Origin: an uncultured Candidatus Rokubacteria bacterium
Lineage (GTDB): Bacteria > Methylomirabilota > Methylomirabilia > Rokubacteriales > CSP1-6
Assembly (NCBI GenBank): GCA_963754315.1
Contig: CAVWFS010000020.1
Location: forward strand, 1-64,000
Length of the DNA stretch: 64,000 nt
Direction of reading: 5' to 3'
A program made the translations under genes and the position numbers. The notes beneath the pieces were generated by a model. It was given only the letters and a program-made list of their open reading frames with translations, had not been told where the DNA came from and did not search any database. This document shows positions 3,966 to 20,527 of the stretch, one piece after another; position 1 is the first letter of the stretch, and each line of letters starts with the position of its first letter.

Positions 3966-4913
3966 TCAGACCTTCGTCCAGGTGCTGTCCGGATTGAATT
4001 CCTTCATGGCCCGCGCGATGGCCGCGCCGTTCGGCCCGAGGTTCTTCTGGTACACGACGCCATCGTGATTGACGATGAATGTCATGATCCCCGACACGCC
4101 GTACTGCGCGGGATAGGCCACCAGCGCAAAGCCGCCGATCAGGCGACCGTGGGCGAGGTAGTCGTACGCTCCACCCGGAGCGTCCTTGCCCTGCGCGGTC
4201 AGGATCCGGTAGTAGTAGCCCCAGTACGCGACGGGATTCGGCGAGCGCTTGGAATAGCCCTCGCCCCTCGCCCTGGCGACGAGCAGACCGAGCGGACTCG
4301 GCGGCTCGCCCTGCTTCGTCGGCCAGTACAGCCCGTCCCGCTTCCCTGGGCTGCTTGCGAACGTCCGCGCGTACTGGAGGAGGCCGTTGGCGTCCGGGTC
4401 GCGCGCGTAGTATTCGCGCTGGGCATCCACGTAGGCACGGCTGACCTGGATTGTGTTGAGCTCGTTCTGGCCGATGCGCCGGTTGAGAATCTCCTCCTTG
4501 CCTTCGGCAGTGTCGAAACGCCAGCTCGGCCCGTCCGGTACGATGGGAATCGCGAACGGGAAGTTCTCGCGCCCCACGACCAGGACCAGCTTGCCTCCGC
4601 CTGCGTCGAGCCGATGCTGCTCGTCGTACGCGGCCACGAAGCGCTCACTGATCCGGCGGTCCGCCACCGGGTCGCCGGACTGGATGAGCGCCTTGCCCTC
4701 CTCGCCGAGAATCGCCAGCAGTGCCTTGCTGTCCCCGGTCCGGAGCGCCGCCACCAGCGCACTCGTCGCGTCTTCGGGCGACGCGAAGTGGCGCTGCGCC
4801 GTGGCGCCCGAGGCGGGCAGCCCCCATGCGGCGGCGAGGCTCACGGCCACGAAAGCGGAGGCAATCAGCCATCGCCCGATGCGTCGAATCCGGTCACTTC
4901 CGCGCAGGCTCAT
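3966..4913 (-). CDS. DUF2950 family protein
   Basis: FASPEDA, GKEEILNRRIGQNEL, YVDAQREY, SSPGKRDGLYW, YGVSGIMTFIVNHDGVVYQKNLG; lies downstream of DUF3300 as is typical. Confidence 0.9.
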   Translation of the reverse strand: MSLRGSDRIRRIGRWLIASAFVAVSLAAAWGLPASGATAQRHFASPEDATSALVAALRTGDSKALLAILGEEGKALIQSGDPVADRRISERFVAAYDEQHRLDAGGGKLVLVVGRENFPFAIPIVPDGPSWRFDTAEGKEEILNRRIGQNELNTIQVSRAYVDAQREYYARDPDANGLLQYARTFASSPGKRDGLYWPTKQGEPPSPLGLLVARARGEGYSKRSPNPVAYWGYYYRILTAQGKDAPGGAYDYLAHGRLIGGFALVAYPAQYGVSGIMTFIVNHDGVVYQKNLGPNGAAIARAMKEFNPDSTWTKV

Positions 4914-4938
4914 GATCGATTCCTCCTCGCGACCCGAT

Positions 4939-6425
4939 TCACCGGCGACCTCGGCCGCCGCCGCCACCACCTCGCCCCCCGCCGCCACCTCGCCCGCCGC
5001 CGCCACCGCTAACCCCGCCTCCTCCGCCGCCGCGCCCGCCGCCACTGATCCCAGACGCGCCAGCGGATCGGGCGCCACCTCCGCCACCACCGGCACCGAG
5101 GCTCTCGCGACTGCTCTGGCCCCGACCACTCGCGCCCCTCACGTCGCTCCCGGATCCCATTCCCTGAAACGCGCCGGCGTCGCGTCCTCCGGACGGCCCC
5201 TGACCCCCGCCGAGCCCGTCGCGTCCTCCGGACGGCCCCTGACCCCCGCCGAGCCCGTCGCGTCCTCCGGACGGCCCCTGACCCCCGCCGGCCCTCCTCC
5301 TCCGGACGGCCCCTGACCTCCCGCCGAGCCCGTCGCGCTGCCGGAGGAGCCGGCGCCCCCGCGCCCGATGTCTTGACGGCCTTGGTCGGCGCGCCCTCGA
5401 AACTCCTCGCGGGACTGCGTCGCCCGGGCGTCGGACGCGCGGTTGTAGCGCTGCTGCGTCGCCTGGTCGCGATACTGAACGCCGCGGCGATTCTCCGGGT
5501 TGTGTTGCCACTGCGACCGATTGCCGGACTGCCGTTGCTGTACCCGCGCGCTGCGCTCACTCGCGACTTCAGATCGGTTCACGTTCCTCGAGAAGTTCGT
5601 GTTCCGGTTGACATCGACGTCCACGTTGCCGCCGCCCCAGTTGCAATTGCCCCACACGGCAGCGCCGACCGCCATGCCCACGCCGAAGGACAACGCGGCG
5701 GCACCCCATGCGTAACCCGGCGGGTACGGGTAGTACGGCGGAGACGCCGGGTACGGCCATGCGCCGTAGACGACCGTGGGATTGTAGGAGGGCACGTACA
5801 CCACGGTTGGACTGGCCGGCTCGATCGTGATCACGCTGGTCGATTGCTGGACCACGGGCGGCTGCCCGGACTGTGCGGGTGCCGGCGGCGCTGCGGGCTG
5901 GACCGTCACCGTCTGCTCCTTCGTGGTCTTAAGATTTCCCTCGGCCTGGGCGCGGGCGCGCAAGCGCTGGATGGCGTCCAGCAACTCCTTCTCCTGGGCC
6001 AGGAACGCATCGCCGAGCTTCTGGGTCCACTCGAGCTTCTGGTCCATCAACTGGAGGGCTTGGGGAAAGGAGACGAGCGACTTGACGCTGTCGTCCCAGG
6101 TCTGCTCCTTGAGCTTCTCGTTGAGCTGATCGCCTTGGAGCTTGGGATTGTCCTTGACGAATCTCGCCGCCTGAACGACCTCGAGCGGGTACGTCGAGGC
6201 CATCAGGACCTGCGCCAGGAGCGGGTCTGGATAGAGCGCGATTGGCGCCGCCACCTGTTCGAGCTGTTCGGGGGTGAAGGCCGGGCCCGCAGTTCCGCTC
6301 GGTTGAGCGGTTGCTGGCGCGGCCGTCGCCGGCGGGGTGGTCGCCGACTGAGCCGTCGCCGGGAGCGGGCTCGCCAGCGCCAGCGCGAGCAGCCATGCGA
6401 GGAGCCTGGTTCGTCGCGTCATCAC
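4939..6425 (-). CDS. DUF3300 domain protein with Gly/Arg-rich tail; frameshift(s) near 5290-5345
   Basis: LEQVAAPIALYPDPLLAQVLMASTYPLEVVQA and WTQKLGDAFLAQ in the 5139-6425 frame; the Gly-rich tail ending GGGRGRR is in the frame ending at 4939. Confidence 0.85.
5178..5337. repeat. Coding 39-bp tandem repeat, about 4 copies, last two degenerate
   Basis: Unit cgtcgcgtcctccggacggcccctgacccccgccgagcc at 5178, 5217, 5256; encodes GLGGGQGPSGGRD. Confidence 0.9.
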
Positions 6426-6875: not shown

Positions 6876-7667
6876 TCATCCGATCCCCGCTGCTCGCGCG
6901 ATCAGAAACAGCCCTGCCCCGATCGCGACGCCCCCGGTGGCTCGCGCCACGCGCTCACCGGCCGGTGCAAGACGTTCGACGGTGATGGCTGCCGCCACCA
7001 CAGCCATCGCGCGAAGGTCCATGACCCCGATGACCATGAGGATCGCCATCGGACCCGCACAGCAGTAGCTGCAGTGAAGGCCGAGGCGCAGGCCGTATCG
7101 CCAGGCCGTGCCGGCGTCGGCCGGCAGCGTACGGCCGCGCCCGGGCGCCTCCCGGCAGCAGGCAAGATGACGCGCCTTCCACGGGGTGAGCTGCAGGGAG
7201 CCGCCGATCAAGACGGCCACACCGACCGCGATAGGGACGGCGAGCGCCAACTCCGGCTGCTGCATCGCGATCGCCGCCAGCGCGGCGCCCAGTGGAAAGG
7301 CGGCCATTCCGAATACAGTCCAGACGAGGAAGTATCCCAAGCCCACGAGCGCGGTCAGCCGACCGAGGTGCGTCTTGCCTGTCCGACCAACGGCCTGGCG
7401 GTAGCGCCACAGCATGGGGACCAGGGACGGCAGCATCATTGCCACCATCATCACGACCCACATGCAAAGGAACGACGCCGCCGCGCCGGGCCACGTCTGT
7501 TCGGGCATCCGCATCCACGCCATCGACATGGTCCAGCCGCCGGGCATCGGCATCTCGCCCATCGCCGACATGGACGCGCACCAGACGATCGTGACCGCCG
7601 CGCTGGCCGCGAAGAGCAGCACTGAGACGCCAAGAAACGCTTGCCGGGAAGCTTGCTCCGAAAGCAT
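6876..7667 (-). CDS. DUF2182 family predicted metal-binding integral membrane protein
   Basis: Met-rich N-terminus, FLCMWVVMMVAMMLPS, QLTPWKARHLACCR, GLHCSYCC, GVMDLRAM. Confidence 0.9.
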   Translation of the reverse strand: MLSEQASRQAFLGVSVLLFAASAAVTIVWCASMSAMGEMPMPGGWTMSMAWMRMPEQTWPGAAASFLCMWVVMMVAMMLPSLVPMLWRYRQAVGRTGKTHLGRLTALVGLGYFLVWTVFGMAAFPLGAALAAIAMQQPELALAVPIAVGVAVLIGGSLQLTPWKARHLACCREAPGRGRTLPADAGTAWRYGLRLGLHCSYCCAGPMAILMVIGVMDLRAMAVVAAAITVERLAPAGERVARATGGVAIGAGLFLIARAAGIG

Positions 7668-7678
7668 GACGCCTTCGC

Positions 7679-8458
7679 TCAGCCCTTGTTGTACTCGTCA
7701 CGGCGGCGCCACCAGACGCCGGCCTCGTTGCGGCCCTTGGGTGCCCGGTCGAGCCACTGATACATGCCCCATAGGCCGTCAAGTCCGCGCGCATACGTCG
7801 AATAGGTGTGGTAGACGACGCCGTCTTCGCGCGCGAACGCGCTCATGCCCGGCCTCTCACGCGTGTACGTGGCCACATCGGTTCCGGTCATGGCCGCGAT
7901 CTCGGCGACAGGCCCCTCGTCGCCGGCCTTCCGGACCAGTGCGTTCACCTGCCACGCCGCCTCGCGGCGGTAGTTGTACTCGATACCCCCCGCGCGCTGT
8001 TGCTCCTCGGTGAACCGGACGTTGAAGTCGAAGTTGAAGTCGCTGGTAAGAGAGGACGCCCAGGGAAACGACCACCCCATCCGCCGCTTGTACGCCTGCA
8101 GCTTCGCGAGCGGCGCCCGCGACACCGCGACCAGGGTGACGTCGTGGTTCGCCAGGTGGACGACGAAGCCGTTGAACCCGTCCGCGATCGCCGAGCAGGA
8201 CGGGCATCCCGCCGTGTAGTCGGGCCCGAACATGAAATGGTAGACGAGAAGCTGCGAGCGCCCTCGGAAGAGGTCGGCCAGCGAGGCGCTCCCCTCCTCG
8301 GTCTCGAATCGATACTCCTTGTCGATCCGTACCCACGGCAGCTCCTGCCGCCGCCGCGCCAGCTCGTCGCTGCGCCGCGTCAGCTCCTTCTCAGCCTCGA
8401 GCAGCTCGAGCCTCGCTGCGAGCCATTCGTTACGTGTCCCCGTCATGTGCTTCGTCAT
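7679..8458 (-). CDS. DUF899 family thioredoxin-like protein
   Basis: WLAARLELLEAEKELTR, LFRGRSQLLVYHFMFGP, GCPSCS, HTYSTYARGLD, LDRAPKGRNE. Confidence 0.92.
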   Translation of the reverse strand: MTKHMTGTRNEWLAARLELLEAEKELTRRSDELARRRQELPWVRIDKEYRFETEEGSASLADLFRGRSQLLVYHFMFGPDYTAGCPSCSAIADGFNGFVVHLANHDVTLVAVSRAPLAKLQAYKRRMGWSFPWASSLTSDFNFDFNVRFTEEQQRAGGIEYNYRREAAWQVNALVRKAGDEGPVAEIAAMTGTDVATYTRERPGMSAFAREDGVVYHTYSTYARGLDGLWGMYQWLDRAPKGRNEAGVWWRRRDEYNKG

Positions 8459-8646
8459 CGCTCTTCTCTCCTTCCTTCGGGTGTCCTTCATCGTTCGTTC
8501 CCGTCAGTCACACGTTCGCTCGACGTCGCGACCTCCTTCTGCCTCGCCACCGCGCTTCTCAATGCGGCTTGGCGGTGGTCGCTCATGAAGATAGATTTAG
8601 CGCTGAATATCGGAACGGTGGGAGTGACAAGTGTGACGGGATTCCG

Positions 8647-11079: not shown

Positions 11080-13185
11080 CTACCTCTTGTAGAAGGCCGT
11101 CTCCGGCTTGGACTGCTTCGGGTGAAGGGTCGAGGAGCCGTTGAACATCCTCTGAGGTACGTTGCCCATGCTGTTCTTGACCACCCGGAGACCCATGATG
11201 CCCGGAGCAAGCCCGACGGTGCCGATCACATATTGCTCCTCGATGGCGATGCGCCAGAGCTTCTTGCCTAGCTCGTAGTGCTGTTTCTCCGGAGCACTGA
11301 ACCCCGCCCGGTAAAGCTCCAACAATTCCTTCAAGCGGCCTGGCGGCGTTTTGCCAGACTCGCCGCCGGTGGCGAACCACTTGCCGTACAGTGGCCCCAC
11401 GGCGCTCGTGGGATCGTAGGGGAACAAGTTGACGGGCGAATGGGCGTAGAGGTTCTCAGTGCCCCACATGATCTCCATGCTGATCTGAGTCTCGTTGGTC
11501 GCCCTTCGCCTGCCCAGAAGGCTCCGCTCCAGCTCCGCAACGTCGGCGTAGATGCCGATCTTTCCCCACTGCACCTTGATCATTTCCGCGATCTGGGTGA
11601 AGGGCATGAACCCGACGTAGGTCGTTATCTCGACGCGCAGCCGGCCCTTCCCATCGGTGCGCAGGCGGTACCCATCCCCGTCCTTCCCCTTCAGCCCGAG
11701 CTTGTCGAGCATTTGATTGGCGTTGTTCGGGTCGTAGGTGGACCAGAGCTTTCGGTACTCGCGGCCGGGGTTGTAGGGTGACTCTTCCGTGCACACGACA
11801 GAGCCAGGAGTGCCGAGACCGAGCCAGAACGTCTCATTGAGCTGGTCCCGGTCGATTCCCAGGGACAGGGCGCGGCGGAAGTCCACGTTGTTGAGCCACC
11901 TGGCGATCTCGGGATCGGCCTCATAGCTCTGGTTGCAGAGCAGAGCCGCATCGCTACCGATGCCGCCGGGGTCCAGGAATACCTTGTAGCTGCCCTTCTG
12001 CTGGTTCTGCAGGAAGACCGGCAGCTTCTGAAGATCCAGATGCCGTTCGCCCCAGTCATATTCCCCGGCGATGGCCCGCAGGTTGATGACCTCCAGGTTC
12101 TCCGCGAGGGTGAGCACCACCTTGTCGACGTAGGGGAGCTGATTACCCTCGGTGTCCACGCCGTAGAAGTACGGGTTCCGCTCCAGCACCCAGGTGGGAG
12201 TGTTTCTGCCCTGCGTCGTCTGCCACGGTGAGATCACCGGCAGTTCCGGGTTCAGTCCCCAGTCGGCCTTGAACTTGAGCAGATTGACCCAGTTATCGAA
12301 CTTGCCCTCCTTGACCTTCCGATCCAGCTCCTCCTTGGAGGCATACTTGGGGTGGAACTGCTTCAGGTAGTGCGCCGGCGCAAACCCTCCCAGGGCGCTG
12401 ACATGGCTATCGTGCGCCTGGCCACCGAAGCCTGTGGGACCGGTCAGGATCACAACAAACACCCAGTAGGGGTCCTTGAACCTCCACCTCACGGTGTAGG
12501 TGTCGACCTTCTCCAGCTCTGCCGGCCCGCTCTTGGTGGTCAAGTAGGGTGAGGGTGCCGGAACCATGTCCTTGTTCCTGTACAGGTCCTCGAACCAGAA
12601 CACGAAGTCGTCGGCGGTGAAGGGCTTCCCGTCGCTCCACTTCATTCCCCGGCGCAGGTTGATGGTGAGGGTCTTGTCGCCGTCGCTGAACTGCCAGCTC
12701 TTGGCCGCCAGGGGAGTAGGCTTGGTGCCGGTTACATCCCAGTGCACGAGGCTGTCGTTACCGCAGAAGCGGACTCCAGCAGACCAGTCGCCCGGTCCGA
12801 GGAAGCCCCGGCGTATGGTGCCACCGTACCGACCGATCTCATGCACCGGCTTGATGACCAGCGGGTCTTCTCCTATCCGCTCCTTGACCGACGGCAGCTT
12901 GCCGGCCTTTACGAGCTCCGCCAGCTGCGGCGCTTCCTTGAAGGCCTTGGGAAACTTGGCCTGATCCGTGACGGTGGTCGGTCCCTCCAGCTTCCCGATC
13001 AGTTGGGCCCCTATCTTTGGCGCCGACGGTGGGGCGGCCGGGGCTTGGGCTGTCGCGGTCGCTGGCTGCCAGGCCAAATCCAGGAGGGCGGAGAGGCTGA
13101 TACCTGCCACTCCGGCGTTGCGGAACAAGTCTCGCCGGGACAGCCCTTGCTGCAACAACTCCTCGAGATTGACCTCTCTGTCCAT
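11080..13185 (-). CDS. ABC transporter substrate-binding protein, family 5 (peptide/nickel), Tat-exported
   Basis: SRRDLFR signal; GKLPSVKERI, LRRGMKWSDGKPFTADD, ERNPYFYGVDTEGNQLPYVD, FRRALSLGIDR. Confidence 0.92.
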   Translation of the reverse strand: MDREVNLEELLQQGLSRRDLFRNAGVAGISLSALLDLAWQPATATAQAPAAPPSAPKIGAQLIGKLEGPTTVTDQAKFPKAFKEAPQLAELVKAGKLPSVKERIGEDPLVIKPVHEIGRYGGTIRRGFLGPGDWSAGVRFCGNDSLVHWDVTGTKPTPLAAKSWQFSDGDKTLTINLRRGMKWSDGKPFTADDFVFWFEDLYRNKDMVPAPSPYLTTKSGPAELEKVDTYTVRWRFKDPYWVFVVILTGPTGFGGQAHDSHVSALGGFAPAHYLKQFHPKYASKEELDRKVKEGKFDNWVNLLKFKADWGLNPELPVISPWQTTQGRNTPTWVLERNPYFYGVDTEGNQLPYVDKVVLTLAENLEVINLRAIAGEYDWGERHLDLQKLPVFLQNQQKGSYKVFLDPGGIGSDAALLCNQSYEADPEIARWLNNVDFRRALSLGIDRDQLNETFWLGLGTPGSVVCTEESPYNPGREYRKLWSTYDPNNANQMLDKLGLKGKDGDGYRLRTDGKGRLRVEITTYVGFMPFTQIAEMIKVQWGKIGIYADVAELERSLLGRRRATNETQISMEIMWGTENLYAHSPVNLFPYDPTSAVGPLYGKWFATGGESGKTPPGRLKELLELYRAGFSAPEKQHYELGKKLWRIAIEEQYVIGTVGLAPGIMGLRVVKNSMGNVPQRMFNGSSTLHPKQSKPETAFYKR

Positions 13186-13202: not shown

Positions 13203-14306
13203 CTAGCTCGGCATCCCCTTCATATCAATGGGCGCGTAGTACCTGCGCTCCCCGAGCGCGTCAACGCGCGCCCAGAAGTCCGGCTGGGCGGCGAGCCCGA
13301 GCTCGGTCACGCCTGCGCGCTGGCGCCACATGCACCAAGAATCCGGATGCAGCTGGCTCGCTTCCCGGAGCCAGCGGTCACCCTCCTCTTCCTGCCCGCG
13401 TCGGATCAAGTGCTGCCCGAGCCTGAACGCGGCGTGAGCCCGCGCCACGTCCTCCGTCGGCAACGGCATGTGCGCCCGGGCGCGCTCCGCGTCGAACGCG
13501 TGCTCGCTCGCCGCCCCGCGCAGTACCCAGTCGCGGACAGCATTCACGTAGGTCGCTTTCGTCTCCGCGGTGATCCGGGCTGCCTCCGCCGGCATCTCGC
13601 GCGTCACGCGATCCATCCGACGGAAGCCCTCGTAGGCACCAGCGGGCTCTGCCGGCCGCACGATCGTGCCGCGCTCGTCGATCCACACCGCCTGCGGCAC
13701 ATTGACCATGTGGTAGAGATCGGCCAGGCGATGCTCGCGGTCGATCAGGCAGAGGTAGCTCGGCTTCGCTGCCTCGATCCACGGGAGCGGATCGCCCTCG
13801 CGGCTGTCCAGAGCAACGGCGATTACCATGAAGTTTCGGTCCTTCAGCTCCTCGTACAGCGCCTGCCACACGGGCAGGTCGCGGCGGCACCCTCACCACG
13901 AGGCCCAGGAGGCGAGCAGGACCTTCCGGCCGCGCTGCTCGGAGAGCGCATGCATGCGCCCGGAGGGATCGGGCAGTGTGAAGTCCGGCGCCTCGAGCGA
14001 TCGTAGCGCCGCTGCGCGCTCCCCGGCCGCTTCCCCGAGCACCCAGATGCGACCGTCCGCGCAGTGGACAACGGGCTTGCCCAGGTGCCGCCACACCGCC
14101 GCCACACCGATCTGGTGGTCGCGCCGGAAGTCACGCTCGCGTCCCGGTGGAATCGGAACGCAGACGCTCCCGCGGCACAGCCCTTCCGGTCTCGACGACC
14201 ACCCGGTGGCGGCCTCGAGCTGGGCTTCGGACAGCCAGAGTTGCTCGCCCTCGACGTTGGTGTCGGGTAGCTCTATCTCTGTCGTCTCGGTCAAGAGGGT
14301 CACCAT
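13203..14306 (-). CDS. Probable selenoprotein: TlpA/ResA-like redoxin with WASW-U-GC motif (UGA at 13893-13895)
   Basis: ORFs 13893-14306 and 13203-13871 are in one frame, joined by a single TGA: APDFTLPD...KVLLASWASW*GCRRDLPVWQALYEEL; the stop sits at the redox-active Cys position. Confidence 0.85.
13859..13882 (-). promoter_or_regulatory. Bacterial SECIS-like stem-loop
   Basis: After the UGA: GCG-A-CCUGCC-CGUGU-GGCAGG-CGC; G/U-containing apical loop begins 21 nt after the UGA. Confidence 0.65.
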
Positions 14307-14472: not shown

Positions 14473-15549
14473 TTACCCCGCAATCAGATGCTCGTCGCCC
14501 GGCCTCCAGCCGACGGCGACACGTGCGCCCTCCCGGAGCGCGTCAGGCGGCGCGCCCGCGACGCGCATCCGAAGCCCCTGCCCGCGGGCAGAGCCAATGA
14601 CGAGGACGCTATCGCCGTAGTTCACGATGACACCGATGTCCATCACGACCTGGTTCGGCAGCGCCGGATCCGCGCCCGGCCGGGCAAGCTGCACACGCTC
14701 GGGCCGCACCAGCACGTCGACGGCACCCTTGCCGATCCGCCGCCAGGCGTCCACGTCGACCCGCACCGGGCCGAGCGCATCGAGCGTGACGCGCCCCGGT
14801 TGGGAGGCGTCCACGGTACCCCCGAAGATATTGCTGTCGCCGATAAACTCGCCCACGAAGCGCGTGCGCGGCCGGTGGTAGACCTCGAGCGGTGGCGCCA
14901 CCTGTTCCAGTTTGCCGTGGCTGAAGACGGCGATGCGGTCGGACATCGTCATGGCTTCCGTCTGGTCGTGGGTGACGTAGACCATGGTGACGCCGACCTC
15001 GCGATGAATCCGCCTCAGCTCGACTTGCATCTGCTCGCGCAGGCTCTTGTCGAGGGCTCCCAGCGGCTCGTCCAGCAGCAGCACGTCGGGGTTGAACACA
15101 AGCCCGCGCGCGAGGGCCACCCGCTGCTGCTGGCCGCCCGACAGCTCGCGCGGATGCCTCTTGGCGAAGCGGCCGAGGCCGACGAGGTCCAGGATCTCGC
15201 GCACCCGGGCCGCTTGGCGGCTCCGCGGGAACTTCCGCATGCGCAGCGGGAACGCGACGTTGCGCTCGACCGTCATGTGGGGGAACAGCGCGTAGTTCTG
15301 GAACACGACCCCGATGTTGCGCTCGTACGGCTTGCGCCGCGTCAGGTCCTCGCCCTCGAGCTCGATGGCGCCGGCGGTCGGCTCCTCGAAGCCGGCGATC
15401 ATCATGAGCGTTGTGGTCTTACCCGAGCCGCTCGGCCCGAGGAAGGTCAGAAACTCCCCCTTGGCGATGTCGATCGACACGCCGTCGACCGCGTTGACGC
15501 GCCCGTCGTACGACTTGACGATGTTGCGGAGCGAGAGGTACGCCGTCAC
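14473..15549 (-). CDS. ABC transporter ATP-binding protein (PotA-like)
   Basis: GPSGSGKTT, LSGGQQQRVALAR, LLLDEP, YVTHDQTEA, C-terminal TOBE-like region. Confidence 0.95.
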   Translation of the reverse strand: MTAYLSLRNIVKSYDGRVNAVDGVSIDIAKGEFLTFLGPSGSGKTTTLMMIAGFEEPTAGAIELEGEDLTRRKPYERNIGVVFQNYALFPHMTVERNVAFPLRMRKFPRSRQAARVREILDLVGLGRFAKRHPRELSGGQQQRVALARGLVFNPDVLLLDEPLGALDKSLREQMQVELRRIHREVGVTMVYVTHDQTEAMTMSDRIAVFSHGKLEQVAPPLEVYHRPRTRFVGEFIGDSNIFGGTVDASQPGRVTLDALGPVRVDVDAWRRIGKGAVDVLVRPERVQLARPGADPALPNQVVMDIGVIVNYGDSVLVIGSARGQGLRMRVAGAPPDALREGARVAVGWRPGDEHLIAG

Positions 15550-15743
15550 TCCGCGAACTGGGCCGCCCGCCACTTGAGGGCGGCGCCGGGCCCGTCCTTT
15601 CGGGTGATCTCGTTGAACCGCTGGTCGACATCCGTGCGGGCGGCGTAGAGCGGGGCCGCGATGTCGAGCCCGGCGTTCGTGGCGTTGTGGAAGCCGCCCG
15701 CGCCCGTGCGCGTGCCAGCCGACCGCGTGGTGCCGCCATCCAT
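15546..15743 (-). pseudogene. Short ORF resembling the C-terminus of an enoyl-CoA hydratase family protein
   Basis: FNEITRKDGPGAALKWRAAQFAE resembles crotonase-family C-termini; overlaps both neighbours as an operon gene would but lacks the catalytic core. Confidence 0.45.
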
Positions 15744-17867
15744 CAGCGCTCAGTCTTTTCCCGGGCCGACGGAACCATCAAGGCGTCGACGACCACAGCG
15801 CCGTGTCCGGCAGGCAGCACCTTGATCGGGTTGAGGTCGATCTCGACGAGGTCCGTGCGGTTCGCCCACGCAAAGTCGCCGAGCGCGTAGAGACAGCGGA
15901 CGAGGGCTGGGACGTCCGCGGCCGGCTGTCCGCGCACGGCGCCGAGCAGTGCCGCGCCCCGGATCTCGCCGATCATCGCCTCCGCGTCGCCCTCGCGGAG
16001 CGGCAGCTGGCGCAGGGCGAAGTCGCGGAGCACCTCGATGGCGATTCCGCCGATGCCGAATGCGAGGAAGTGGCCGAAGGCGGGATCGCGTTTCACGCCG
16101 GCGAAGACCTCCACGCCGCCCGCGATCATGGACTGGACGACGAAGCCGTCGATCGAGGGCCGTGGTGTCGTCTCGCGCAGGCGGCGCTCTAGAGCCCCCC
16201 AGGCGGCCTCGAGCCCCGCCTCGTTCACGAGGCCGGCACGCACCAGCCCCAGATCCGAGCGATGCGGCAGGTCGTCGGCCACGACCTTCAGGACGACCGG
16301 ATAGCCGAGGTCTTGCGCCGCCTGCCGCGCCTCGCCCAGGGTCCGGATCAGACGCTCGCGAACGACGGTGAGGCCGTGCTGGGCGAGGAGCCGCTTGGCG
16401 TCGTGCTCGTGGATCGTCGGCCGCGGGCGCCCCCCGAGCAGGCTCGCCACGCCGACGCCGCCGGGCGCATCGCTCCGGCGCGACGGCGGCCGCGGCGCCG
16501 CCCAGCGCGCGAGGTGATCGATCGCCCCCAGGCCCTGGCGGGTACCGCCGATGGTGGCGATGCCGTGCCCGGCCAGGAAGCGCACCTGCTCGCGCCGCAT
16601 CACTCCCGGCCGCATGTTCATCTGGTAGTGCGGCTTGGCGCTCCGCTCGGCGGCGGCGACGAGGAGCCGGCTGTAGCCGAGCGCGCGGTCGGCGCGGCCC
16701 ATCGGCGCCTCGTCGAAGCTGTCGCTGCAGAAGGCGATGGCGTCGACGGCCGCCGCATCAAGCGTCGCCAGCGCGTGCGGCAAGTTCGTGTCGTAGTCGC
16801 CATTCCCCCAGGCGTCGAGCGGGTTGCCGTCACCGGTGACGGGGCCGATCACGCGCTCGATCTCCTTGCGGCCTTCGGGCGACAGCGGCGGCAGCTCGAG
16901 CCCGGCGCGCAGTGGCCACATCGAGGATCAGCTCGGCCTGGCCGCCGGAGGCCGTGATCACGGCGAGCCGGCGGCCCCCGGGCCAGCGCTGGCCCTGGCC
17001 CACGGCGAGCACTTCCGTGAGCTCGTCCAGATCGCTCACCTCGATGGCGCGGTGGGCGCGCAGCATCGCCGAGAAGACCGCGGACTCGCCGGCGAGTCCG
17101 CCCGTGTGGGTACCGATCGCCCGCCGCGTGCGCTCCTGGCGACCGACCTTCAGGACCACGACCGGCTTTCCGGCATCGGCGGCGCGGTCGAGCGCGGCCA
17201 CGTACCGCTCGGGATCGGCGATCCACTCCGTGAAGGTGGCGATGACCTTGGTGTCGGGATCGTCGATGAGCGCCTCGAGATACTGCGCCGTGCTCACGAC
17301 CGCTTCGTTGCCGGAGGAGATGACGTGGCTGAAGCCGAACCGCCGGATGTCGGCCAGCATGCCGATGCAGATCGACCCGCTTTGCGACACCAGCGCCACG
17401 TTGCCTGCCAGGCCGTCCGGATCGCGCACCTCCTGCATGTAGACGGAGCTCCGGTGGTGCGGATTGAGGATACCCATGCAGTTGGGTCCGCACAGCGCAA
17501 TCCCGGCATCCCGACACATCCCCACGAGCTCGGCCTGACGTCGACGGCCCGCGTCGCCGTGCTCGGCGAAGCCGCCGTCGTAGATCACGGCCCCGCCGGC
17601 GCCTCTGTCGGCGACGGTGCGGAAGCTCTCGACGATGCGCGTGTAGGAGACGCACAGCGCGACCACGTCGGGCTGCTCCGGCAGCTCGCGCATGTCCGGA
17701 TAGCAGCGCTGTCCGAGGATCTCCGTGTACTTCGGATTGATCGGGTACAGTCGACCGTCGTAGCCGAGGGTCGACGCCGACTCCATGAGGGCACGGCCGA
17801 TCGACGGGCGCTCGGAGGCGCCCAGGATGGCGATCGAGCGGGGACGGAGCAGGGCGTCAAGTCGCAT
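15743..17867 (-). CDS. Acetate--CoA ligase (ADP-forming acyl-CoA synthetase) family; frameshift near 16910
   Basis: PRSIAILGAS, GPNCMG, SQSG, SSGNEA, HTGGLAG, NPLD, GYPVVLK, HRSDLG, EIDLNP across two frames. Confidence 0.88.
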
Positions 17868-18624
17868 GGGCGGATCTCCGGCGCATGAACGTCGACACGA
17901 GGACGCCGAGCACCACCGCGCTGACGAGGAGCGTGGAGACGACGGCGATCACTGGATCGGACTCGAGGCGGATGCTCTCGTACATCTTCTTGGGGAGGGT
18001 CGCCGCCTCCCGGCCTCCGATGAAAATCACCACCACTGCCTCGTTGAACGAGGACAGGAACGCGAACAGCGCCCCCACCAGCATGCCTGGCCGCAGCACG
18101 GGCAGGGTGACGTGGAAGAACGTCCGGAGTGGACCCGCGCCCGCGCTCATGGCGGCGCGCTCGAGGTTCCGGTCGAAGCCCTTGAGCGTCGCCGTGATGA
18201 CGAGAAAGGCGACCGGCACCGCGAGGACGCCGTGGGCGACCATGACTCCGAGGTAGGTGCCGGTCAGCCGCGCGCGCCCGAGGAAGCCGTAGTAGGCGAG
18301 CGCGCTCACCACGTGCGGCACGATCAATGGCGCCATCATCAGCAGATTGACGAACGCCTTGCCGCGGAAGCGGTACCGCACGTAGCCGAAGGCGGCTGGC
18401 ACGACGAGGAGCATGGTCAGCGCCGTGGCACCGAGCGCGATGATGAGGCTGTTCAGCGTCGGCTCCAGCCACTCCTCGCTGGTGAAGTACTTCCCGTAGT
18501 AGCCGAGCGAGTAGCCTGGCGGCGGGAACTCGAACGAGATCGCGGTACTGAACGACATGGGTACCACGATCGCGATCGGCAGCAGCAGGAAGAGTGCGAC
18601 GAGGCCCGCGAGGGTCAGCCCCAT
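17857..18624 (-). CDS. ABC transporter permease (PotC-like)
   Basis: LERAAMSAGA EAA loop, TLPVLRPG, FLSSFNE, multiple TM helices. Confidence 0.92.
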   Translation of the reverse strand: MGLTLAGLVALFLLLPIAIVVPMSFSTAISFEFPPPGYSLGYYGKYFTSEEWLEPTLNSLIIALGATALTMLLVVPAAFGYVRYRFRGKAFVNLLMMAPLIVPHVVSALAYYGFLGRARLTGTYLGVMVAHGVLAVPVAFLVITATLKGFDRNLERAAMSAGAGPLRTFFHVTLPVLRPGMLVGALFAFLSSFNEAVVVIFIGGREAATLPKKMYESIRLESDPVIAVVSTLLVSAVVLGVLVSTFMRRRSAHAT

Positions 18625-19499
18625 AGGCGATCCAGTCCGGCGAACCGGTTGTAGGCGAGAAGGATGAGGCCGGTGGCGACGAGGAGGATCACCGCCACCG
18701 CGGAGGCGAAGCCCCACGCGAGTAGCTCCTCGATCTGCTGGTTGATGAGCTGCGAGATCATCATGTCGCGCGGCGTGCCGAGCAGGATCGGGGTCACGAA
18801 GAAGCCGAGGCAGCTGACGAAGACGAGCAGGCTGCCGTTCACGACACCCGGCAGGCTGAGCGGCAGGAACACCTCCGTGAACGCCGCCCGCGGCCGCGCG
18901 CCCAGGCTCGCCGCCGCCTTCAAGTGGTCGGGCTCGATCTTCTTCATGACGGCGAAGAGCGCGAGGATCATGTAGGGCAGCAGGATGTGCGTCATGCCCA
19001 AGGTCGAGGCGAAGCTCGTGAAGAGCAGCTTGGGCGCGGCGCCGCCGAGGCCGAGGGCGTGGTAGGCGGCGACCACGGGACCCTTGCTGCCGAGGATCAC
19101 CAGCCACGCGTACGTTCGGACGAGAAAGCCCGTCCAGAAGCTCATGGCCACGATGGTCAGCAGCAGCATCGACACCCAGTCGGTCCGTCGCGCCATGACG
19201 TAGGCGACCGGATAGCCGAGCACGAGGCAGAGCGCGGTGACGATCAGCGACGTCACGAACGTGTTGAGCATCACCTGCGTGTAGAGCGGCACCGTGAAGA
19301 TGCGCTGGTAGTGCGCGAGCGACAGGCGAGGGTCGGTGACGCTGGTGACGAGCATGAGCCCGATGGGCATCACGAAGAGCAGGGTCAGCACGAGGCTCGG
19401 TGGGCCGAGCAGCAGCCACGCCGCCAGGTTCCCGCGGCGCGCGGGGCGGCTGCCGACGGCCGTCCCCAGCGCCGCCGCCGGGCTCAGCCCGCCAGCCAC
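18615..19499 (-). CDS. ABC transporter permease (PotB-like); start approximate
   Basis: LGYPVAY, LVRTYAW, AAASLGA, FLPLSLPG, TPILLG. Confidence 0.9.
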   Translation of the reverse strand: MAGGLSPAAALGTAVGSRPARRGNLAAWLLLGPPSLVLTLLFVMPIGLMLVTSVTDPRLSLAHYQRIFTVPLYTQVMLNTFVTSLIVTALCLVLGYPVAYVMARRTDWVSMLLLTIVAMSFWTGFLVRTYAWLVILGSKGPVVAAYHALGLGGAAPKLLFTSFASTLGMTHILLPYMILALFAVMKKIEPDHLKAAASLGARPRAAFTEVFLPLSLPGVVNGSLLVFVSCLGFFVTPILLGTPRDMMISQLINQQIEELLAWGFASAVAVILLVATGLILLAYNRFAGLDRLWG

Positions 19500-20527
19500 T
19501 GCGTAAAGCGCTCCTGGATCCGTGCGGTGTGGTCCGCCTCCCACACGGTATCAGGGCGAATGGCGACCTTGACGTTTTCGCTGTAGGTCGGCAGCTGTCG
19601 CGCGACCTCGGGGGTCACGAACTTGAACGCTTCGGGGTTGGTCGGGCCGTAGTACAGCCGGTTCGCGAAGTCGGCCTGTGGCCGGGCCTGGACCGCGAAC
19701 TGCAGGAACTCCCAGGCCGCCTTCCGGTTCGGCGCGCCCTTCGCGATGCCCCACATCGTGGTGGTGATGGTCGCCCCATGCCACACCAGGTCGACGGGAT
19801 GACCCTGTTGCTGTAGCTCGCTGGCGCGCGCGTTCCACATCACCATCATGTCGACCTCGCCGTCGCGCAGCAGCTGCTGCGACTGGTTGCCCTGCGTCCA
19901 CCAGACCTTGATGTGCGGCTTGATCTGGTCGAGCTTCTTGAATGCGCGGTCGACGTCCATCGGGAAGACCTTGTCGGGTGGCACCCCGTCGGCCACCAGC
20001 GCGAACTGGGCCGCCCGCACGGAATTGTTGAGCATCGATCGGTTGCCCGGGAACTTTTTCACGTCCCAGAAGTCGGCCCACGTCTTCGGCCCACCCTGGG
20101 GGAACTTGTCCTTGCGGTAGGCGAGATTGGTCCCGAGCGCGCAGTAGGCGAGACCGTTCGCGTAGACGGCGTTCGGGAAGAGCTTCTCCTTTTGCACGAT
20201 CGTCCAATCGATCGGCTCCACCAGCCCTTCCCGCTCGGCGCGAAGAAGGTCAGCCTGGGTGATCGATGTGATGTCCCACTCGTACGTTCCGCTCTGCACC
20301 TGAGCCTTCAGCTTGGCGTAGGACACCGGAGCCACCGTGCGCACGCGGACGCCCGTCTGCTCGGTGAACGGCTTGAAAAAGGCGGCTTCCTCGGCGGCCG
20401 TCCAGCTCCCGCCCCACGTGTTGACGTAGATCGTGCGCGTTTGCGCGATCGTACGGTCCGTGACGATCAGCGGTCCGCCGACGGCCGCCGTGGCGGCGGC
20501 TCCCTTGAGGAACGTGCGACGTCGCAT
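19484..20527 (-). CDS. ABC substrate-binding protein (PotD/PotF-like), Tat-exported
   Basis: MRRRTFLKG signal; TWGGSW, TWADFWDVKKFPG, DVDRAFKKLD. Confidence 0.92.
   Translation of the reverse strand: MRRRTFLKGAAATAAVGGPLIVTDRTIAQTRTIYVNTWGGSWTAAEEAAFFKPFTEQTGVRVRTVAPVSYAKLKAQVQSGTYEWDITSITQADLLRAEREGLVEPIDWTIVQKEKLFPNAVYANGLAYCALGTNLAYRKDKFPQGGPKTWADFWDVKKFPGNRSMLNNSVRAAQFALVADGVPPDKVFPMDVDRAFKKLDQIKPHIKVWWTQGNQSQQLLRDGEVDMMVMWNARASELQQQGHPVDLVWHGATITTTMWGIAKGAPNRKAAWEFLQFAVQARPQADFANRLYYGPTNPEAFKFVTPEVARQLPTYSENVKVAIRPDTVWEADHTARIQERFTQWLAG

Follow-up and report, generated by a model that had tools for sequence, protein, structure and literature searches.

The window analysed in the present study is a stretch of 64,000 nucleotides from an uncultured Candidatus Rokubacteria bacterium. 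On its minus strand lies a reading frame interrupted by one TGA codon, and the following features were located there:

13203..14306, minus strand: NF041054-type selenoprotein gene, 367 aa with a predicted Sec138, ending in TAG (translation and profile match)
13893..13895, minus strand: in-frame TGA, predicted Sec138, in place of the first Cys in the thioredoxin CxxC (homolog column and alignment)
13862..13878, minus strand, extending to 13882-13858: putative bSECIS upper stem-loop CCUGCC-CGUGU-GGCAGG (bSECIS model and comparative test)

Translation of the minus strand from 14306 to 13203 gave 137 aa, the TGA, 229 aa and a TAG. A sequence-only reading of this DNA, which named no strand, had described a single TGA dividing two ORFs of one frame and, with TGA taken as U, a 367-aa product with Sec at residue 138; both descriptions were confirmed by translation, and the product reads W134-A-S-W-U138-G-C140-R around the TGA. 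That reading had also expected standard callers to split the gene, and the ORF listing indeed yielded 13893-14306 (137 aa) and 13203-13871 (222 aa) as separate ORFs.

The neighbourhood of the gene in the window was as follows:

11080-13185, minus strand: 701-aa family-5 ABC solute-binding protein (peptide/nickel-type), starting 17 nt past the selenoprotein stop
14473-20527, minus strand: PotA/PotC/PotD-like ABC transporter genes, upstream
15743-16921 and 16830-17867, minus strand: two-part ADP-forming acyl-CoA ligase interrupting the Pot-like genes
7679-8491, minus strand: DUF899 thioredoxin-like gene
6876-7667, minus strand: PpoB2 "copper chaperone" membrane protein, adjoining the DUF899 gene
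3966-6425: DUF3300 and DUF2950 genes

The gene of the solute-binding protein is possibly co-transcribed with the selenoprotein gene. It was found beside the selenoprotein gene in no other locus within flanks of 1.5-3 kb in genomes and 0.8 kb in metagenomes, and PotA-like neighbours occurred in three other loci at merely 32-35% identity. Of 41 unique TGA loci, at most nine shared a neighbour cluster (an MFS-like ORF, judged by eye), and most clusters stemmed from one clade. A functional link to the neighbours was rejected, none of them being conserved in a way that would hint at a substrate.

The residue at column 138 was compared first among proteins. The best 120 matches in the protein database included 46 full-length homologs (51-61% identity), each of which has Cys at this column and G-C-R after it, so that G139, C140 and R141 are invariant. 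The remaining 74 of the best 120 are C-terminal halves of about 221 aa with 78-98% identity, the form in which gene callers leave Sec-bearing copies. In genome DNA, searched by protein with the codon ignored, column 138 was TGA in 80/80 loci (including the query gene, its two own paralogs and duplicates) and never TAA or TAG. These loci span 41-100% identity and belong to Rokubacteria, Alpha- and Gammaproteobacteria, SAR324, Myxococcota and a spirochaete; among the named ones, the nearest come from Ca. Methylomirabilota / Rokubacteria MAGs and reach 83% identity. Over 145 unique aligned loci the column held TGA in 72 and TGY in 73. Thus the homologs carry Cys or UGA here and never another residue, as the earlier proposal of a selenoprotein had demanded.

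The hairpin downstream of the UGA has arms at 13878-13873 and 13867-13862 and the loop CGUGU at 13872-13868. The CCUGCC/GGCAGG stem noticed earlier is real; its start, given as 21 nt after the UGA, was misplaced, since 21 is the first loop base; 14 nt separate the UGA from the stem and 20 nt separate it from the loop. Six base pairs close a 5-nt loop with G at the second position followed by U, at -9.3 kcal/mol. The bSECIS model in the available text of PMC13188914 allows a loop of 3-9 nt, a stem of 4-16 bp, G in the first two loop positions, a distance of 16-37 nt from the UGA and a minimum free energy of at most -7.5 kcal/mol. Checked by hand, the hairpin satisfies these published constraints, which bears out its description as SECIS-like. 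Its folding energy did not go beyond that of shuffled sequences in this GC-rich DNA (z of -0.20, -0.14, 0.11 and -0.62 in four windows) and was dropped as evidence. The energy being unremarkable, the case for a SECIS rests on comparative conservation.

The stem overlies the conserved peptide D-L-P-V-W-Q, and for this reason the TGA loci were compared with Cys-encoding homologs. A TGY pattern scan matched 118 metagenome stretches, of which 80 were used; the resulting 160 loci gave 158 aligned over column 138 and 145 unique ones, 72 with TGA and 73 with Cys. With the Cys set drawn from these 80 of 118 stretches, the inner five pairs were intact in 72/72 TGA vs 24/73 Cys loci, all six pairs in 64/72 vs 18/73, and the loop GU was present in 70/72 vs 15/73. 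When the peptide was matched to DL[PS]xWQ, the inner stem was kept in every one of the 72 TGA loci and in 21 of the 36 Cys loci; matched to DL[PS]VWQ, the figures were 70/70 and 9/14. The Leu codon ended in G in 72/72 TGA loci vs 24/36 peptide-matched Cys loci. Furthermore, within the TGA loci Gln CAA occurred solely with Leu TTG (7/7, a double change from C-G to U-A) and Asp GAT always with A or G at the partner position (10/10), and the Cys loci violate these Leu, Gln and Asp pairing rules. The conserved peptide does supply much of the stem pairing, but the peptide-matched Cys loci led us to reject the idea that the hairpin is a mere by-product of the peptide as the whole explanation. The two sets came from different searches, the Cys loci lie further from the query, and relatedness among the loci inflates the Fisher p-values, which for these contrasts overstate the difference. 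A quick tree, built from 137 of 145 rows and 140 columns, required 13 Sec/Cys changes, at least five of them forced by well-supported branches, and the stem contrast is therefore not the trace of one event. Overall, the comparison of sequences gives good support to the view that the hairpin acts as a SECIS under selection.

The genome that carries the window (G000, 95.6% complete) contains selA, selB, selD and tRNA-Sec (selC), all above cut-off, and ARAGORN also calls a tRNA-SeC(tca); the Sec machinery that had been named as a check is thus present. The relevant loci outside the window are:

contig C3, 114917-119175: cluster of selA, selB and tRNA-Sec (profile matches over cut-off)
G000 C19:736058-736981: own selD (L011), a Cys version with GGGCGCKL
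G000 C15:52091-52894, minus strand: NF041054-type paralog L025, sharing the U-G-C TGA and the SECIS stem but lacking the N-terminal Cx4C
G000 C7:434379-435470, plus strand: NF041054-type paralog L026, likewise sharing the U-G-C TGA and the SECIS stem

In a survey of 41 genomes, the own one and 40 relatives, the gene was matched (E of 1e-30 or better) in 28, with one in-frame TGA each. All 28 have selA, and the gene match was absent from all four genomes in which selA was not matched (G009, G011, G013 and G028, 88-98% complete). Related genomes are not independent, so this co-occurrence is consistent with the need for Sec machinery but does not amount to a statistical test of it. The missing selA in these four genomes is most likely an assembly gap. 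They were also seen to carry a TGA-containing selD, and an in-frame TGA was observed in 36/37 selD matches of the relatives, the remaining one (G008) being without the first profile positions. The own SelD may be a replaced or Sec-to-Cys copy. The thioredoxin domain of paralog L026 contains about 25 inserted aa, and the genome seems rich in thioredoxin-fold selenoproteins. Further TGAs at redox positions were noted at C18:402584 (+), C18:301211 (+), C19:618508 (+) and C7:102598 (-), with the TlpA-like motifs FWATW-U-TY-C, FWTYG-U-IN-C and FWTTW-U-PD-C and the peroxiredoxin-like motif WTPG-U-ST-C.

The homolog column, the sel genes and the hairpin together support the predicted Sec insertion, and the mid-gene TGA is almost certainly read as selenocysteine. 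We are highly confident that the locus is best explained as a single gene whose 367-aa product is a selenoprotein in the known WAxxUGC, or UGC-containing Prx-like (TlpA-like), family.

An AlphaFold2 model of the read-through protein, built with 47 sequences, shows one confident fold across the TGA (pLDDT 93.7, pTM 0.91). Its parts are:

14010..14306, minus strand: N-terminal beta-rich domain, aa 1-99 (pLDDT 87-96 per 10-residue block)
14160..14177, minus strand: C44-x4-C49 on a beta-hairpin (invariant in 46/46 full-length homologs)
13512..14009, minus strand: TlpA/ResA-type thioredoxin-fold domain, aa ~100-265 (Pfam AhpC-TSA and VIA-align)
13887..13895, minus strand: U-G-C redox centre, one residue shorter than a CxxC (alignment to 3gl3 and homolog conservation)
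13695..13697, minus strand: Pro204 in N-V-P-Q (invariant in alignment A1 and aligned to known prolines)
13317..13454, minus strand: C-terminal TPR-like helix pair, aa ~285-330 (model)

The N-terminal domain gave no Pfam match over aa 1-99, its single-sequence model was poor (pLDDT 51.6), and in fold searches with the whole model the matches were filled by the thioredoxin domain. The C-x4-C noticed in this domain at the outset is there as C44-x4-C49. A G-x-C-x4-C lies upstream in 61/71 TGA and 51/63 Cys loci with enough upstream DNA; since the motif was not found in 10 of the 71 TGA loci, the own paralog L025 included, C44/C49 is not needed family-wide. In the VIA-align comparison, 3gl3 matched with Z 14.9, rmsd 2.1 and 139 aligned residues, and ResA 2f9s with Z 14.4. 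In the alignment, U138 falls on the first cysteine of CxxC, the U-G-C corresponding to C-G-P-C of 3gl3 minus one residue, and Pro204 falls on the proline of G-M-P / G-V-P in 3gl3, TlpA and 3kcm, which we take to be the thioredoxin cis-proline position. The TPR-like helix pair proposed from the sequence agrees with predicted helices 285-302 and 306-319 of the model. The family profile matches designed TPR proteins at 286-330, with no single stretch passing alone, and the query has no Pfam TPR match at E 0.01. Precomputed matches to PF13428, PF07719 or PF13432, presumably TPR families, exist for 12/46 full-length homologs. By inspection, no signal-peptide-like hydrophobic stretch was present at the N-terminus, and the protein is probably cytoplasmic.

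On the best reading, by analogy with thioredoxin-fold enzymes, the protein would be a cytoplasmic TlpA/ResA-like thiol-disulfide oxidoreductase that cycles a Sec138-Cys140 bond. SelB-GTP-Sec-tRNA would bind the stem-loop immediately downstream of the UGA, inserting Sec at 138. The Sec138 selenolate, at the start of helix 139-157, could then attack a substrate disulfide or peroxide, Cys140 would resolve the mixed bond into a strained Se-S ring, and a cellular reductant, possibly via the C44/C49 pair, would reduce the ring again, with the TPR-like helices probably selecting the protein partner. A CGC disulfide has been described as mimicking PDI, its potential being -167 mV (Woycechowsky and Raines 2003, as cited in the text of PMC4316792), and this makes isomerase or reductase chemistry plausible. 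A more specific proposal is a self-contained relay from C44-x4-C49 to a strained U-G-C selenenylsulfide, with client choice by the TPR-like helices, that is, a Sec-dependent cytoplasmic disulfide isomerase/reductase with three Sec paralogs. We offer it tentatively, as a possible but rather doubtful extension. If true, it would mean an uncharacterised kind of enzyme expanded to three Sec-bearing paralogs in a soil-type bacterium.

Alternatively, Sec might be inserted into an enzyme that is mainly a peroxidase (Prx/GPx-like), with C140 or C186 resolving. Here the best Pfam match is AhpC-TSA (E 1.4e-17 at aa 105-216, where Redoxin also matches), GSHPx matches weakly (E 0.001, below cut-off), and C186 is kept in 40/46 full-length homologs. 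However, the nearest sequences and folds are those of TlpA/ResA/DsbE, the peroxiredoxins scoring lower (Z 12.1 or less vs 14.9), and the site is W-A-S-W-U, not the P-x-x-x-T-x-x-C that forms the Prx motif. The names given to the family fall on both sides, Prx-like in the available part of PMC2398784 (2008) and TlpA-like in that of PMC13188914 (2026). We consider a mainly peroxidatic enzyme possible, though unlikely.

A much poorer account is that the TGA is a real stop, the locus being a pseudogene or a gene split into proteins of 137 aa and 222 aa. Gene callers do split it likewise, as the C-terminal halves among the best 120 matches illustrate, and a GTG start is available at 13871. But this GTG sits within the SECIS loop, the split would cut the modelled thioredoxin fold at its active site, and the TGA stands at the catalytic column in all 80 loci from several phyla, so that we regard a real stop as very improbable. 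It is hardly credible that the TGA arose during sequencing or assembly, or that a deviating genetic code reads it as Trp. An independent 330-nt contig (X4 record 29, covering 13788-14117) has two differences from the gene (13851 and 13993) and the same TGA, which with its retention in 80/80 loci speaks against error, and the Trp reading conflicts with Cys rather than Trp in homologs, with TGG as 14/14 Trp codons of the gene and with other genes of the genome, e.g. selD, that end in TGA. Public sequencing runs were compared at contig level; an RNA run (X20) gave short contig pieces only, neither for nor against expression.

Returning to the selenoprotein of the WAxxUGC family, the outcome is an annotation fix: the protein collection represents close relatives solely by C-terminal halves that lack an active site, and the comparative test adds good in-silico support for selection on the family's SECIS. 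A specialist would find no surprise in the gene itself, the family having been predicted since 2008, and the locus offers no special handle on activity or substrate. The literature searched, with subscription journals outside its coverage, yielded no biochemical study of the WAxxUGC family and nothing related on Rokubacteria and selenocysteine, and the family terms were not found in the main text of BSepDB.

With Cys standing for Sec, the read-through protein matches NCBIfam NF041054 (WAxxUGC_long) at 300.3 bits against a cut-off of 300 (E 2.1e-89), a margin of 0.3 bit, and at 293.6 bits with the stop left in. NF041054 is an equivalog, "ResA-like WAxxUGC motif-containing protein". The alignment places residues 24-359 on profile positions 7-351 of 354, so that this is the long form with both terminal extensions covered, and each half alone also matches (positions 7-115 and 124-352). 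The W-A-x-x-(U/C)-G-C motif of the ResA-like domain is present as W134-A-S-W-U138-G-C140, and a Cys homolog (P0080, 54% identical) bears the same family name at NCBI. Thus the whole-length match and the motif are shared, with no difference of substance and a score at the threshold; Cys82 and Cys325 of the query are extras not conserved among homologs. PMC2398784 lists, in its available part, the family "Prx-like (UGC-containing)" under pfam00578, counting 46 selenoproteins and 855 Cys homologs, and its supplementary file 3 contains 5 WASWUGC and 10 SWUGCR occurrences. Compared by eye, sequences in the supplement share the downstream motifs DLPVWQ, NVP and HPDSW with the query; they are marine and other aquatic metagenome reads, whereas the query is a probable Rokubacterium copy. 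The family is also listed as UGC-containing Prx-like or TlpA-family in the available text of PMC9312934 (2022) and PMC13188914, the latter a review. Hence the novelty that the sequence-only reading saw in a "hidden" gene and an "unusual U-x-C" does not stand, since U-G-C defines NF041054 and the family was already listed in these papers; the gene belongs, as a typical member, to a selenoprotein family that has been on record since 2008 and is curated at NCBI.

With ResA, TlpA and DsbE (2f9s, 1jfu and 3gl3) the protein has a common thioredoxin-fold core (Z 12.0-14.9, rmsd 2.1-2.8), and the nucleophile and proline positions align. It differs from them in having U-G-C in place of C-x-x-C, no evident membrane anchor, and additional domains at both ends, an N-terminal one with Cx4C and a C-terminal helical one. 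It also falls far below the ResA and TlpA family cut-offs (60.5 vs 170 bits for ResA, NF002854, and 53.2 vs 230 bits for TlpA, NF047696). We propose by analogy that it would work like ResA/TlpA/DsbE, yet it is not a member of that group.
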